Under the pieces are notes generated by a model. That model worked only from the letters and a program-made list of their open reading frames with translations, had not been told where the DNA came from and ran no database searches. From Candidatus Heimdallarchaeota archaeon (lineage in GTDB: Archaea > Asgardarchaeota > Heimdallarchaeia > JABLTI01), in the NCBI GenBank assembly GCA_018238155.1, contig JABCTZ010000018.1, positions 1-64,000 on the forward strand: 64,000 nt of DNA, in the 5' to 3' direction. Positions within the stretch are counted from its first letter, which is position 1; each line of letters begins with the position of its first letter. A program made the translations under genes and the position numbers. Positions 1 through 41,656 of this stretch are shown in pieces.

Positions 1-52
1 GTGAAAGGAAGTATTAGAGAAAATGAGAGAGTGTATTGTAAGAAAGGTTGTT
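1..52 (+). repeat. Direct repeat copy 1 (upstream of ORF 110); may extend left of the window
   Basis: gtgaaaggaagtattagagaaaatgagagagtgtattgtaagaaaggttgtt matches 1968..2019 at 51/52 positions. Confidence 0.95.
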
Positions 53-55
53 AGT

Positions 56-85
56 CTTTACTAATCTTTTCTTTACTAATCTTTT
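56..85 (+). repeat. 15-bp tandem duplication in the leader of ORF 110
   Basis: ctttactaatctttt occurs at 56-70 and 71-85. Confidence 0.9.
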
Positions 86-109
86 CTTCGCAAAAGGAAT
101 GATAAGAAA

Positions 110-1285
110 ATGAAAAAAATAACCATAATTAACACATTACTAATATTTTTGGTAATAATTGGATCGTTTTTAGCAAACGTAGGTGTGATTGCTTCAATAA
201 TACCAAAAAATGTGAATAAAGACTACGATGGGGTTAAAGAAAATCAAGCAGCAGAAATTGATATAAATATATTAGATTTCAAAGCTGTGACAGAGGTTTT
301 TGATTACTTGAAGACTCAAGCAATACTTAATGAGTTTGATATTACAACAACAGTATTTTCATCTGGACTTTTATTTGAAACAGAAAATTCATTGATAGTA
401 ATAGGCCACGGATACTTTGATTCAAATGATCAATACAGAATTGCAGATTATACACAAAACCAAATTAAGCGATTTTCTGAACAAAAGCAAATAGTAGCTT
501 TACTTGGATGTTATTCAAGCACTATTAAATTAGACAATGAAATTCAACTAACTTACTTTGATAAAGTAGATCTTAAAACTGCATTACAAGATTTAGTAAA
601 TCTTCTCGATTGGACAATCAGTCATGAATTCTTACCATCGATGAACATTCAATTATTTGATCTTGACCCTGGTGGGAGTGGAAATGGGTGGAGTTTGAGT
701 AACCCTCCCCCAGCATTTAACATACAGAGAATGGCTTATTGTCCAGAAGACAATATCTATTGGAATTTACTAACATCAACTGGTGTACGATCACTCTCTA
801 CTTATTTATTGAATCATAAAATGAATGCTATCCGTTTTAATTATATAGGTGAATTTCTAGTGGAAACAAGTCCTAACTCAAATTCATATTATATAATAGA
901 TCAAAATTTACAATTTGATGCATGGATTTCCAATCCGGACGGTGTATGGGACTATCTAAATTTTGCAAATACAGAAATTAACGGAGTTTCAAAACCAGAT
1001 TTTCGTGGTAGCATAAAAGTATTTGATATCATAACTCAATTAGTGCAAGCAAATGGAATATCCTATTCTGAAGCAGCTTTCAATTTGGCATTCGTATTTA
1101 CACCGATTGGAATTGCTCTTTGTGGAGCAGCATATTTTATAATCAAATATGTATTTGCCGCTACTTTCTCATTCCTAATATTCTTAGGTTGGGTAGGTGG
1201 TGTGATAGCAGCTATAATCGGAGTAGGACTTGTAATTGCAGCCATTTATTATGGGATATCTGGTTATATTAGAAGAAATGAGTGA
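110..1285 (+). CDS. Secreted protein with putative caspase/CHAT-like (clan CD) protease domain and hydrophobic C-terminal helices; candidate toxin precursor
   Basis: N-terminal signal/TM; LIVIGHG (H100) and IVALLGCYS (C134), each after a hydrophobic strand; LDPGGSGNG linker; Gly/Ala-rich hydrophobic C-terminus. Confidence 0.5.
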   Translation: MKKITIINTLLIFLVIIGSFLANVGVIASIIPKNVNKDYDGVKENQAAEIDINILDFKAVTEVFDYLKTQAILNEFDITTTVFSSGLLFETENSLIVIGHGYFDSNDQYRIADYTQNQIKRFSEQKQIVALLGCYSSTIKLDNEIQLTYFDKVDLKTALQDLVNLLDWTISHEFLPSMNIQLFDLDPGGSGNGWSLSNPPPAFNIQRMAYCPEDNIYWNLLTSTGVRSLSTYLLNHKMNAIRFNYIGEFLVETSPNSNSYYIIDQNLQFDAWISNPDGVWDYLNFANTEINGVSKPDFRGSIKVFDIITQLVQANGISYSEAAFNLAFVFTPIGIALCGAAYFIIKYVFAATFSFLIFLGWVGGVIAAIIGVGLVIAAIYYGISGYIRRNE

Positions 1286-1721
1286 AAAAACAATGACTAT
1301 GATAAATAATATGGATGAAGAACAAAATAAAACAGATACAAATAAGAAATTTGATAATTTTTTTGTCAAATACCTTTTCGGTATGTCGCTTCTTTTTTGT
1401 ATTCCGCCTTTCCTAAAATTCCGCATTGACTTTTCTACTTTGGATCCAAGATCACTTGAAGCTAACTTGTTACTATTTATAATTTCAACAATATTGATTC
1501 TTTTATCAATCTTGTTGTACATCAGTCCTTTGATTTTCCAATTGCTTAAACATAGATCTCTAACGAAAAACGATTTTAGTGCTATTGAAAATGAGGTAAG
1601 TAATCCAACAAAGAATAGTTATAAAACTAGAAGAATATTTTTATGGTTCTGTTCTATTGGCACCTTAATGGTTTTAATAGCTCAAATAACTTTCTTGATA
1701 GTCTTAATTATTATCTGCTAA
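1278..1721 (+). CDS. Small 3-TM membrane protein, translationally coupled to ORF 110; candidate immunity protein
   Basis: ATG at 1278 overlaps the upstream stop (ATGAGTGA); three hydrophobic segments; paralogous to 2048..2500. Confidence 0.65.
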   Translation: MSEKTMTMINNMDEEQNKTDTNKKFDNFFVKYLFGMSLLFCIPPFLKFRIDFSTLDPRSLEANLLLFIISTILILLSILLYISPLIFQLLKHRSLTKNDFSAIENEVSNPTKNSYKTRRIFLWFCSIGTLMVLIAQITFLIVLIIIC

Positions 1722-1724
1722 TAT

Positions 1725-1759
1725 TCTCAGATTGATAAATAATCTGAGATAATTTTTTT
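1725..1759 (+). terminator. Hairpin plus T-tract after the 110-1721 operon
   Basis: tctcagatt-N7-aatctgaga followed by taattttttt. Confidence 0.6.
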
Positions 1760-1967
1760 ATTTATTGATTGCTTTGAAATACTAAAGGGACAAGGTTTTA
1801 TCTACTTTATCTTCAAATGTTGAAATAGTAGTATAAGCTCACTACTTTAGGAAATTTTTTGTTGTTTATATAGCAGGTAAAAATATAGCTTTACATGGTT
1901 GTAGTCACAAGCGACAAAATCTCACAAAACTTAATATCTCTGAGAGAATACTATCAATAATACTTGT

Positions 1968-2019
1968 GTGAAAGGAAGTATTAGAGAAAATGAGAGAGTG
2001 TATTGTAAGAAAAGTTGTT
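1968..2019 (+). repeat. Direct repeat copy 2 (upstream of ORF 2048)
   Basis: 51/52 identity to 1..52. Confidence 0.95.
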
Positions 2020-2047
2020 TCATTGCTATGGGAGAGGTTTAATAGAA

Positions 2048-2500
2048 ATGACTAATGAATCTAGCAAATATAGTAATAGTTCAAATGAGCAAAATAATGA
2101 TAATGTAAGATTTGTATATTTACTAATCCTTACAATGTCAATAGTTCTACTGACAATATTAGTCATCTCTGGTTTTCTTTTACCAACAAGTAACTATAGT
2201 ACAATGAGCGTAATCACATCGAGTGGTGCATATGGTTTAGCATACTTCATTCTTGTTGGTACAGGTCTTTTATTATTGGTATTAGCCTTTTGTCTTGGAT
2301 TTCTAATTCCATTATTGACATTTTCAAGAAAACTAGAAAAAGACTCGAAGCTAAACTTCTCAATACTTAATGAGGAAAGATTAAAACCAACAACTAGAAT
2401 GGGTAAAAGTAAGAAGATGATAAGTGATTTATCCTTAATCATTGGTATATGTCTATTCATTGCTTCTCAAGTAGTTCTATTTGGTTTCATATACTATTAG
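2048..2500 (+). CDS. Small 3-TM membrane protein, paralog of 1278..1721
   Basis: GGAGAGG RBS before ATG 2048; shared pattern PL...K..FS....E...PT....K...IG.......Q. Confidence 0.65.
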   Translation: MTNESSKYSNSSNEQNNDNVRFVYLLILTMSIVLLTILVISGFLLPTSNYSTMSVITSSGAYGLAYFILVGTGLLLLVLAFCLGFLIPLLTFSRKLEKDSKLNFSILNEERLKPTTRMGKSKKMISDLSLIIGICLFIASQVVLFGFIYY

Positions 2501-2508
2501 AACTCTTA

Positions 2509-2531
2509 AATTGGAACTTCAAGTTCCAATT
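2509..2531. terminator. Perfect 11-bp inverted repeat followed by T-tract (terminator or operator)
   Basis: aattggaactt-c-aagttccaatt then cgtttttattttt, just after the stop at 2500. Confidence 0.6.
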
Positions 2532-2678: not shown

Positions 2679-3654
2679 GTGATTGCTCCCAGCACTCCAA
2701 CTTTCGTAGCAGGGTTTGTTGTCGAGAATGGTGGTATATATGCTCTTGTATTACAAGATAACTACCTTTATCTTGGAAGTCATTATGGTTTAGAGATTCT
2801 GAATATTAGCAATCTTGACAATATCACTAAGGTGTGGGCAGCATTACAATACAACTGGAGCTGTTAGTGCTCTTACTTTGCAAGAAGATTATGCTTACTT
2901 CGCTGCTGATAGAAATGGTTTGGTTATCGTCAATATTAGCGATCCGACTCAACCCGTAGAAGTAGGTTGTTTTAATGATGGTGGGAGTGCTTGGGACCTT
3001 GCACTTAAGGGGTCGCTTGCCTTTGTAACTGATTCTGAAACTACTTTAGAGATAATTAACATAACCAACCCTCAGAATCCAGTTAAAGTTAGCCACTTTG
3101 AGGATGAGGTATATGATGATATGCGCGGATTAAGTATCATATTAAATGGTTCATTTGCTTATCTTGGTACTTCCCACTATGGACTCTTCATACTTAATAT
3201 TGTAGATATCGCTCATCCGGTTAGAATCAGTCATTATTTCGGTGGAACAATGCCAATAAGGGATGAGGGAAATGACGAAATTGTTAGGGGTGTTTTTATA
3301 AGCGAACAGTACGTTTTCGAAGCTGCAGTTTATAATGGTTTATATATCCTCGACGTCAGTAACCCCTCTGTTCCCATCCTATTAGGACAATATACCACGA
3401 TTAATTTTCTTTATGGAGTTTTTTTGCATGAGACATATCTTTATCTGCAAGATGAAGGTGGTGGTATCTTGATTCTGAACTTAACGTTCTATAGTGGTAA
3501 TCCTCCTGGGAGCTATACAGGACTTATCTTAACTTTAATTATCGTTCCCATTGTGGGTGTTGTGATTATTCTACCGCTTTTCTTGAAGTACAAACGAAAG
3601 AAGAAAATGGAAAAGATGATCAATCTCTTTCGCACAGAGAACACTAAAAAATAA
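2679..3654 (+). pseudogene. LVIVD-repeat beta-propeller surface protein with C-terminal TM anchor, frameshifted near 2835
   Basis: Repeats GLEILNISN, GLVIVNISDP, LEIINITNP, GLFILNIVD, GLYILDVSNP are split over ORFs 2679..2867 and 2815..3654; no intact signal peptide. Confidence 0.75.
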
Positions 3655-39829: not shown

Positions 39830-41656
39830 ATGACAAATTACAAGCCTGATCCGTTACCTTTTGACGAATTGTTAGGATTACCATCTTATTCGATGCCAAC
39901 ATTGACTAAGAATAAGGATAAACTAGCTTTTTTTTGGGATAAAACAGGTCAAATAGAATTGTATGTGCTTGATATGGAAACCAAAGAAATTGAACAGATT
40001 TCTCATGGAGAATTACCAAAATCACCAAGAACAGGTTTCACTTGGGATAAAGAAGGGAAGAAAATTTTCTTTGGAAAAGATAGTGGTGGAAATGAGCAAA
40101 GCGATATTTGGGTTATAGATATTCTAACAAAAAAAGCAAAACCTTTGACTGAAACACCCAAGGCTCAAGAGCATGTAGGAAAAATTAGCAATGATAATCA
40201 ATGGTTAACTTTTATGAGCACACGAGAGGGACAAATGAATGTTTTCAAAATGAAATTAGATGGTTCTGAAGTGACTCAACTTTCTGCATCGGATATTCCT
40301 GTGAATGGTGGTATTTGGAGTCCAGATGACAAATTTATCGCTATGGGCACTAATGAGATGAAAACGAATCTAGAGAATGATGACATTTATCTTTACAACA
40401 TTGAAACAGGTGAAATGGAAAGAGTGATAAGAATTACTGAAGAAGGTTCTCACGATAGATTTGGTGATTGGTCTCCAGATGGAAAAAGCTTCTCATTAAT
40501 GTCAGATGCATCTGGTTTGAATCAAGTAGGAATCTACACCATTGATTCTAAAGAAATCAATTGGTTGAGTGATGGTTCAGTAGATGAAAATGGAGGCAAG
40601 TTCAGTGAATCTGGAAAATATCTCGTAGTATTGCGAAATCATGAATCAACACTAAAACCAATTGTTTATGATTTAAAAACAGGTGATAAAAAGGAGTTAG
40701 ATATACCTGAAGGATTAGCCTTTTTCTATGATTTCATTAGCGATGATAAACTTCTTTTCTTATTCACTAATCCACAAATTAAAGGAGATATTTGGATATA
40801 CGATATAGCTACTGATAAATATCAAGTACTTCTTGCTTCAGAATATGGTTCAATTGACAAATCAAAATTATTGGAACCGGAATATATAAAGTACAAATCT
40901 TTTGATGGATTAGAAATACCGGCAATTGTTTACAAGCCCAAAAATATTCCCAAAGGAGTAAAGTTACCAGCAATTATCAACGTTCATGGTGGTCCAACAG
41001 GACAATTTTTCAGAACATTCGATGTCATGGATTCATATACAGCTTCAGAAGGTTTTGTTGTTATTTTGCCAAATATTCGAGGAAGCACTGGATATGGTGT
41101 TGAATTTAGAGATGCTTGTATAAAGGACTGGGGTGGAAAAGATTTACAAGATGTAGTTTATGCTGCAAAATATTTGAAATCCCTTCCATATGTTGATCCC
41201 GATAGAATTGGCGTTGGTGGTGGATCATATGGTGGCTTCATGACATTCATTGCGGTAACTAAAGAACCGGAACATTGGAAAGCAGGATTTGCTTGGATTG
41301 GTATCTCCGACTTCTTTACTATGTATGAGGAATCAATGCCACATTTCAAGTATTTCCTCGCAAGGCAAATGGGCGATCCGATAACTGACAAAGACCTATG
41401 GTATGACAGGAGTGCAGTAAACTTTGCTGAAAAGATGACTGCTAAATTGCTTATTTTCCATGGAATAAATGATCCCCGTTGTCCAATCAGTCAAGCAAGA
41501 ATATTCAGAGATAAATTGAATGATCTTGGCAAAAAAGAAGGAGAGGATTATGAATATATGGAATTAGACTCTGTTGGTCATGGTGGGTTTGGTGATATTG
41601 CTACTAGAAAGCTTACTGTAAAAACCATGGTTGATTTCTTCAAAAGAGCATTATGA
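39830..41656 (+). CDS. S9 family (acylaminoacyl/prolyl oligopeptidase-like) serine peptidase
   Basis: WSPDG propeller repeats; VHGGP; GGSYGG; HGINDPRC; GHG. Confidence 0.92.
   Translation: MTNYKPDPLPFDELLGLPSYSMPTLTKNKDKLAFFWDKTGQIELYVLDMETKEIEQISHGELPKSPRTGFTWDKEGKKIFFGKDSGGNEQSDIWVIDILTKKAKPLTETPKAQEHVGKISNDNQWLTFMSTREGQMNVFKMKLDGSEVTQLSASDIPVNGGIWSPDDKFIAMGTNEMKTNLENDDIYLYNIETGEMERVIRITEEGSHDRFGDWSPDGKSFSLMSDASGLNQVGIYTIDSKEINWLSDGSVDENGGKFSESGKYLVVLRNHESTLKPIVYDLKTGDKKELDIPEGLAFFYDFISDDKLLFLFTNPQIKGDIWIYDIATDKYQVLLASEYGSIDKSKLLEPEYIKYKSFDGLEIPAIVYKPKNIPKGVKLPAIINVHGGPTGQFFRTFDVMDSYTASEGFVVILPNIRGSTGYGVEFRDACIKDWGGKDLQDVVYAAKYLKSLPYVDPDRIGVGGGSYGGFMTFIAVTKEPEHWKAGFAWIGISDFFTMYEESMPHFKYFLARQMGDPITDKDLWYDRSAVNFAEKMTAKLLIFHGINDPRCPISQARIFRDKLNDLGKKEGEDYEYMELDSVGHGGFGDIATRKLTVKTMVDFFKRAL

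Follow-up and report, generated by a model that had tools for sequence, protein, structure and literature searches.

Bacterial polymorphic toxin systems, among them the contact-dependent inhibition (CDI) pair CdiA-CT/CdiI, the Rhs proteins and the orphan C-terminal (CT)-immunity modules, are built from a conserved N-terminal part, in which identity is lost abruptly after a short motif, and from a small downstream partner that diverges together with the variable part; orphan genes, 5'-truncated stumps, several loci and a patchy distribution accompany them. Releasing peptidases in polymorphic toxins sit N-terminal to the variable module, and the C80 domains are self-processing modules in large toxins. 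In Proteus mirabilis, IdsD and IdsE form a pair of membrane proteins whose variable regions must match for strain-specific recognition, with type VI delivery. To our knowledge, the ways in which Asgard archaea compete with or recognise each other are almost entirely uncharted. In Thermococcales, the VARTIG modules contain large multi-immunoglobulin (Ig) proteins with a hypervariable Ig domain, for which roles in conflict or in self/non-self recognition have been proposed (Makarova et al., 2021, PMC8416519). Here, a stretch of 64,000 nucleotides (nt) from Candidatus Heimdallarchaeota archaeon (assembly GCA_018238155.1, contig JABCTZ010000018.1, positions 1 to 64,000), referred to as the window, was analyzed with respect to the large gene ORF110, a small gene with three transmembrane segments (3-TM) that overlaps its end (P0002) and a second small 3-TM gene without a large gene of its own (P0003).

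Tentatively, and with a probability that we place a little below even, ORF110 and the small genes are read from their sequences as a polymorphic two-gene membrane cassette, either toxin-immunity-like or a lethal/non-lethal self-recognition pair. The first base of the window is the first base of contig C44 of the source genome (G000; C-numbers denote contigs of this metagenome-assembled genome of 4.08 Mb in 46 contigs). ORF110, also listed as P0001, encodes a protein of 391 amino acids (aa) at positions 110–1285 of the forward strand, on which all window features given below also lie. It starts with an N-terminal signal peptide or signal anchor (residues 1–32, positions 110–205; A22, N23, S29 and P32 conserved) that consists of a basic n-region and a 28-residue hydrophobic stretch; since this stretch is long for a cleaved signal peptide, the leader could be a signal anchor instead. 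A compact alpha/beta head follows (residues 56–180, positions 275–649), then the LDPGGSGNG hinge (residues 185–193, positions 662–688), a beta-rich second domain that is predicted to be extracytoplasmic (residues 206–305, positions 725–1024) and a hydrophobic tail of 76 residues (316–391, positions 1055–1282) that was modelled as a long helical hairpin and whose hydropathy permits two to three TM segments. The Gly+Ala fraction is 0.29 in this tail versus 0.10 in the remaining protein. The hydrophobic leader, the GHG and GC motifs after strands, the hinge, the second domain and the Gly/Ala-rich tail listed in an earlier note on this DNA were thus all found.

The cognate partner gene P0002 (positions 1278–1721, 147 aa, three hydropathy peaks) starts with the ATG at 1278 within ATGAGTGA and thereby overlaps the TGA stop codon of ORF110 (1283–1285). 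The orphan P0003 (positions 2048–2500, 150 aa) lies behind a second copy of the sequence upstream of ORF110, with 51 of 52 positions identical between 1–52 and 1968–2019. Both arrangements, the overlap and the repeated upstream sequence, had been reported in the earlier note and were confirmed.

The pair is not confined to the window. Six ORF110 paralogues, P0001 among them and the others 36–47% identical to it, were found on C44, C4, C43, C45, C20 and C10, and each is followed within ~30 nt by a 3-TM gene of 138–152 aa. In nine other genomes, a 3-TM gene of 128–168 aa was present directly downstream at every adequately covered locus, so that the linkage to a small TM gene held wherever the locus was covered. 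The large gene occurs in 10 of the 83 genomes of the class and is patchy even inside the genus. A search of 5.8 billion sequences matched 11 proteins, one of them labelled Candidatus Heimdallarchaeota, and 41 profile matches were obtained among 1.84 billion representatives; the one named genome match was again a Heimdallarchaeota metagenome-assembled genome. As judged by these searches, the cassette is restricted to Heimdallarchaeia, with a patchy and accessory distribution.

Conservation along the cassette is strongly uneven. Mean identity among the six paralogues of this genome was 54% in the head, 53% in the hinge, 27% in the beta domain and 18% in the tail, and 21% among their partners. 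At the nucleotide level, several paralogue pairs fell from 67–77% to 27–38% identity in the interval starting at residue 194, and the hinge marks the boundary of this collapse. At the 5' end, the first 20–40 codons are 97–100% identical among the large genes of C4, C45 and C20, a mosaic pattern that suggests recombination among the large paralogues. The test set by the earlier note, namely a conserved N-terminal domain combined with variation in the downstream TM gene and in the sequence behind DPGG, therefore came out as predicted. W218, L220 and Y282 are invariant in an alignment of 14 sequences, which indicates that the region after the hinge is one homologous, fast-diverging module. The correlation between the divergence of the C-terminal region and that of the partner was only modest (Spearman 0.2–0.4).

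Partner genes outnumber large genes. A profile built from 19 partner proteins detected 12 copies in the genome versus six large genes: the six cognate partners, three extra copies in cassette loci (P0003, C20_s2 and C20_s3) and three copies elsewhere (C28:39297-39716, C29:77867-78286 and C7:277746-278111). The C29 copy is preceded by an open frame of 116 aa that is the 3' stump of a large gene, matching residues 298–413 of the large protein of G073, a genome of the same genus (54% identity, E value 1e-24). Over 508 nt, the C28 copy shares 77% identity with positions 1252–1759 of the window and so retains the last ~34 nt of an ORF110-type gene, and a resemblance of the same kind links the C7 copy to the C20 junction. 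Extra partners in tandem occur on C20 and in G075, where two were found. Weak partner-like matches were also obtained in many genomes of the class that lack the large gene, some of which may be accounted for by hydrophobic composition. The orphan partner genes of the earlier note are therefore real, and more numerous than had been seen.

The relationship of P0003 to the family was established through an intermediate. A direct BLASTP comparison of P0002 and P0003 was not significant (E 0.17 over 25 aa), whereas P0003 comes closest to the small cognate gene paired with the large gene of G073 (31% over 134 aa, E 6.5e-19). The paralogy of the two small genes proposed in the earlier note consequently stands when traced via intermediates such as the G073 partner, but not in the direct comparison. 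On this sequence relationship, P0003 genuinely belongs to the family; the large gene that matches it is absent here but occurs in a relative.

Two observations were made beside the partner genes. The large gene appears split or interrupted at G082:C3:5528-6668(-) and at G022:C15, with separate frames for head and C-terminal module or an in-frame TAA, and the 3-TM partner is intact in both. Upstream of the C28 orphan (~39875-40020) there is an element of 110–145 nt with at least 15 copies at 73–86% identity on C28, C31, C33, C35, C5 and C9, which is possibly related in kind to miniature inverted-repeat transposable elements (MITE-like).

The head contains the strings SLIVIGHG, with H100 at positions 407–409, and QIVALLGC, with C134 at positions 509–511. 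G99, H100, G101, C134 and S136 are invariant in an alignment of 35 homologues. In the AlphaFold2 (AF2) model of residues 46–310 (predicted local distance difference test, pLDDT, 89.8; predicted template modelling score, pTM, 0.82), the head region reached a pLDDT of ~90–97 and the beta domain ~90; the strands at residues 94–98 and 128–132 precede the His and the Cys, and each residue is positioned directly after a parallel hydrophobic strand. The order of His and then Cys, each after a hydrophobic beta-strand, the Gly after the His and an alpha/beta type of fold in the model are shared with clan CD (CHAT, caspases, legumain, separase and the C80 cysteine protease domain, CPD, of MARTX/TcdB), and clan families dominate the structural neighbours; by contrast, the ~125 residues of the head are about half of a normal caspase-like domain.

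In an exhaustive VIA-align comparison, the best structural match of the head was the SAVED-CHAT structure 8tl0_A (Z 6.1, root-mean-square deviation 3.4 Å, 111 residues aligned). About 18 of the top 50 neighbours belong to clan CD and cover nearly every family of the clan (legumain, caspases 3/8/9, separase, metacaspases, MALT1, RtxA CPD, C11 peptidase and DdvA-CHAT), at Z 4.1–5.0 apart from the top match; the remaining ones are generic Rossmann-like folds. Foldseek searches of the PDB with both models gave nothing at E <= 0.001, and no Pfam match was obtained for P0001, P0002 or P0003. Peptidase_C80 was matched by one of the 35 family members with an E value of 0.043, below significance. An hhalign comparison of the family with 10 Asgard CHAT domains reached a probability of 1.7% over 9 columns, with the GHG motif alone aligned, and the language-model features of the ESM Atlas gave DUF6345 (0.87) and CHAT (0.85), both under the lead threshold of 0.9. 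The C80 and CHAT matches are weak leads that point the same way as the structural comparison. Concerning the caspase-like fold claimed by the earlier note, the His-Cys pair and the structural proximity to clan CD were upheld, but the Z scores stay at 4.1–6.1 and a significant sequence-profile link was not obtained. As judged by its model, the head is probably a clan-CD-like domain of miniature size whose dyad is intact, not a demonstrated clan member, and it is possibly the smallest caspase/CHAT-like domain so far, predicted to be extracellular. A canonical CHAT protein is also encoded in the genome (C26:14153-14908(-), Pfam CHAT E 5e-37, open frame of 987 aa); its sequence is unrelated to that of the ORF110 head.

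Across the 83 class genomes, the hinge motif is private to proteins of this system. In the six-frame open reading frames of the genome, strings of the type DPG[GD..]SGNG were confined to five large paralogues and two Big_7 Ig proteins (C4 and C10). A degenerate DNA pattern for D-P-G-[GD]-x-G-[ND]-G gave seven matches in the 83 class genomes and none with the reversed control; of the seven, four lie in large paralogues, two in the Big_7 genes and one at the N-terminus of a protein headed by a LamG-like domain, P0036. Codon usage varies between the copies, which argues that the motif is maintained at the protein level. As far as sequence can tell, the DPGG motif behaves like a functional tag common to the proteins of the cassette system, and we hypothesize that it would be a cleavage or recognition site for the head.

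The part that runs from the beta domain to the end of the protein, the C-module, also occurs in other contexts. In P0036, P0037, P0038 and P0048 it stands behind one or two LamG-like domains, without the His-Cys head. At G075:C1, the one locus of this kind that was readable, the LamG-headed gene is followed by a 3-TM gene of 144 aa; the partner thus belongs with the C-module and not with the peptidase-like head. Within the model of residues 46–310, no clear fold could be assigned to the beta domain, whose best matches were heterogeneous and did not exceed Z 5.1. A VIA-align search with the whole model was uninformative, since generic helical hairpins that align with the tail took up the whole list of matches.

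The genes of the system are also joined by a common promoter-leader cassette, in which, where the copy is complete, a TATA-like box lies ~30 nt upstream of a 52-nt element that is followed by two to six 15-nt repeats and a start-proximal stretch. In front of ORF110 these parts are the purine-rich 52-nt element (positions 1–52, cassette copy 1), inside which both the window and C44 begin, two tandem pyrimidine-rich 15-nt units TCTTTACTAATCTTT (positions 55–84; two to six units in other copies) and the conserved start-proximal leader CTTCGCAAAAGGAATGATAAGAAAATG (positions 86–112), which includes the start codon of ORF110. Copy 2 (positions 1968–2019) leads into the orphan gene with no 15-nt repeats in between, and the leader of P0003 comprises only the first ~46 nt of the cassette; the conserved promoter region before it (positions 1886–1967, with a TATA-like box near 1931–1938) is common to the C22, C4 and C10-end copies.

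Besides position 1968 of the window, the 52-nt element is present at C10:4934, C21:228124, C22:114(-) and C26:76(-); the paralogues of C4, C10 and C20 and one C26 gene have diverged variants of it upstream. The start-proximal stretch was found in ten copies with at most two mismatches, before the six large paralogues, the two Big_7 genes and one secreted protein of 533 aa. Overall, at least ten cassette copies, exact or diverged, were counted in front of genes for secreted or membrane proteins, namely the six large genes, both Big_7 genes, the 533-aa C26 protein and P0003. By coordinates, cassette sites lie at C4:109380-109547, C10:1-64, C10:2975-3095, C10:4934-4985, C20:144893-145000 and C26:34937-35059, and the cassette was also found at the ends of C21 and C43 and at the starts of C22, C26 and C45. 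In total, nine contig ends stop inside the cassette; contigs break in it, and this is why the window begins there. The upstream repeat described in the earlier note is therefore not a private duplication but part of a multi-copy cassette, and a related leader occurs in a genome of the same genus.

Three other explanations of the leader and of the contig breaks were discarded. An upstream open reading frame of 17 aa, MKGSIRENERVYCKKGC, was ruled out, since a 2-nt indel in other copies breaks the frame. A structured RNA is not supported, as no Rfam match was obtained and the fold z-scores were -0.14 (window 1-115) and 0.02 (orphan leader), with one variant at -1.9. A shufflon-type inversion is not needed, as at least five loci with an identical leader explain the breaks. 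The copy at C10:4934-4985 has ATG instead of GTG at the start and four substitutions, and it lies after the C10 pair with no gene following on its strand; by its sequence and place it is the remnant of a cassette and corresponds in position to the leader heading P0003. The 533-aa secreted protein (C26:33339-34940(-)) has no Pfam match and carries a variant leader cassette, so it may belong to the same regulon.

The cassette lies among genes for surface proteins: its leader is shared by the Big_7 Ig and LVIVD propeller proteins, and giant adhesin-like genes are adjacent. The two Big_7 Ig proteins, of 410–413 aa (C4:111246-112478(-) and C10:62-1303(+)), carry VLDPGDSGNG immediately after the signal peptide, and their genes have the same leader cassette and lie upstream of an LVIVD gene and a large/partner pair. 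In the window, an LVIVD-repeat beta-propeller gene with a C-terminal TM segment is found at 2679-3654 (+) (Pfam LVIVD E 9e-32). It is 5'-truncated and split over the frames 2679-2867 and 2815-3654, in comparison with the intact copies of 445–449 aa upstream of the C4 and C10 paralogues, and is probably a pseudogene left by a rearrangement of the locus.

The architecture, the conservation pattern, the linkage, the orphans, the exclusivity of the motif and the common promoter-leader were observed directly, and from them we infer a mechanism that includes peptidase activity, a cleavage site, toxicity, protection and a route to a target cell. The large protein would be exported via its N-terminal signal or anchor helix, placing the head outside the cell, where its His-Gly...Cys dyad would act as a miniature clan-CD (caspase/CHAT-type) cysteine peptidase. 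Within the membrane, the 3-TM protein, which is translationally coupled, would be the specific partner of the tail: the tail would act as a membrane-active or recognised effector, and the matching partner would neutralise or recognise it by helix-helix contact. The DPGG tag or its immediate surroundings would be the site at which the head cuts, in cis and possibly also in trans, the trans substrates being the Big_7 and LamG proteins that bear the tag and are co-regulated. Head and hinge are kept similar among the paralogues, with mosaic 5' ends suggesting recombination; the part after the hinge and the partner diverge fast, and spare partners, some of them behind 3' stumps, accumulate.

Two observations speak for a specific helix-helix pairing rather than for mere anchoring. 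Variation is highest in the buried tail and in the partner and lowest in the exposed head, and the tail differs in composition from ordinary TM helices, with a Gly+Ala range of 0.15–0.33 in tails versus 0.03–0.11 in the TM helices of the partners. Together, the conserved head, the sharp junction, the variable effector with a matched neighbour, the orphans and stumps, the several loci and the patchiness match the polymorphic toxin-immunity or recognition cassettes described at the outset. In contrast to the bacterial systems, the variable part is a single homologous membrane module and not a series of unrelated toxin domains, neither delivery domains of the YD, FHA or LXG type nor a secretion system accompany it, and the DPGG motif is single and not invariant. 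The analogy with Rhs proteins drawn in the earlier note failed, as there are no YD repeats, no Pfam RHS/YD match and no double DPxGL, and the single DPGG is replaced in homologues by CPGG, DSGG or HPGV.

Two further systems offer parallels in some respects. Like the VARTIG modules (PMC8416519), the cassette is archaeal and lineage-restricted and has the layout of a polymorphic toxin system, in which the N-terminal part is conserved, the C-terminal part is hypervariable and recombines, and the genes downstream vary; its variable part is instead a beta domain and membrane tail with a 3-TM partner, and its head is caspase-like. With IdsD/IdsE it shares the principle of two membrane proteins acting as a matching pair, but there is no homology and the Ids proteins have no peptidase head.

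Several points weigh against the reading as a polymorphic toxin-immunity or recognition cassette. The clan-CD match of the head lies below the safe level of VIA-align (Z >= 8), and no part of the cassette significantly matches a known toxin, immunity or peptidase family in Pfam or in PDB sequence and profile searches. The C-terminal part is a single homologous fold throughout, and unrelated toxin domains are not exchanged in it. The LamG-headed relatives keep the partner without having the peptidase, so release by the head is not obligatory. Within the six loci no secretion genes were found, the N-terminal leader of Sec type being the only export signal, and no delivery machinery lies nearby. 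The tail comprises at least 66 hydrophobic residues, which no bundle shields, and is expected to enter the membrane of the producer itself. Moreover, the duplicate partner genes could be simple duplication debris, and a fast divergence of TM segments can also come from weak constraint.

A non-antagonistic surface system is a possible alternative, though an unlikely one. In this case, the large protein would serve as an ecto-peptidase, or as a surface protein, that is anchored in the membrane, and would require the 3-TM protein as a subunit for assembly, anchoring or regulation, while the paralogues would give diversity of substrates or of the surface, for example against viruses, and the truncated copies would be silent recombination cassettes. 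The strongly hydrophobic tail, predicted to be an integral membrane hairpin, would suit such a role, as would the use of the C-module and partner behind differing heads (His-Cys or LamG-like), as expected of an anchor module. The surface proteins encoded by the neighbouring genes (Big_7, LVIVD and giant adhesin-like) point in the same direction, and the shared leader, in which the count of 15-nt repeats varies, is reminiscent of phase-variable surface gene families. However, surface variation predicts the reverse of the pattern observed, in which it is the exposed head that is conserved and the buried parts that vary. A mere anchor also leaves unexplained the stand-alone partners with their own promoter and the case in which the large gene that matches a partner is found in another genome only, and it does not fit the difference in Gly/Ala composition between the tail and the ordinary TM helices of the partner.

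The secreted archaeocin favoured by the earlier note appears rather improbable. The head would cut at DPGG and free a soluble pore-forming fragment that attacks other cells, with the 3-TM protein as colicin-type immunity. The position of a peptidase-like head directly N-terminal of the variable module and the presence of partner and orphan partner genes are consistent with this proposal. As in the pore-forming colicins with their immunity proteins of 3–4 TM segments, a hydrophobic helical hairpin is combined with a small multi-TM protein that would act inside the membrane; the archaeal protein differs in lacking the ten-helix pore domain and the translocation and receptor domains, its hairpin is unshielded, and a match to colicins was obtained neither in sequence nor in fold. 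The colicin analogy of the earlier note did not hold, since the model consists of a beta domain and then an exposed long hairpin without a helical bundle to bury it, and no Colicin Pfam match was obtained. The tail also resembles weakly the head hairpins of ClyA-family pore formers, but the structural matches (AhlB with Z 8.8, and SmhB) are at the chance level for long helical hairpins, and those to MakA/NheB in PDB sequence searches (E ~1) are compositional and not evidence.

In the absence of an amphipathic bundle that would make it soluble, a fragment with so hydrophobic a tail would remain in the membrane of the producer, so that the secreted and released fragment of the earlier note is topologically doubtful. 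Furthermore, D186 is not invariant (LCPGG, LDSGG, LDAGD and LHPGV occur among the homologues), the LamG-headed relatives have neither the peptidase nor a hinge before the C-module, and the missing delivery system and the missing match to a known toxin also speak against it.

An intracellular-conflict module of the abortive infection or addiction type, in which the partner would restrain a depolarising tail until its loss or a trigger sensed by the head frees the tail, would account for the tight coupling of the genes, their patchy accessory distribution and the top structural match to SAVED-CHAT along with several others from defence systems, but is very improbable, given that the head is predicted to lie outside the cell, away from infection signals, that no defence genes were noticed beside the loci (no dedicated defence-system search was made) and that orphan partners are unexpected for addiction.

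Returning to the polymorphic membrane cassette, a wider and more speculative form of it, to which we assign a low likelihood, is an Asgard-specific self/non-self system. The head would be the maturation peptidase for the private DPGG tag, and the tail and 3-TM partner would be a matching code that is read when the membranes of two cells meet or exchange material. Asgard cell-cell contacts are central to ideas on the origin of eukaryotes, and the cassette carries genomic signs of conflict or recognition, among them the apparent recombination at a fixed hinge, in parts that all belong to unannotated protein families. It is also a small, testable system, with two genes, ~540 residues in total and six natural variants in one genome. 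If the head is active and the DPGG tag private to it, this would be a new route of protein maturation in archaea, and if the self/non-self reading is true, the nearest relatives of eukaryotes would possess a mechanism of cell-cell recognition or antagonism that operates entirely inside archaeal membranes.

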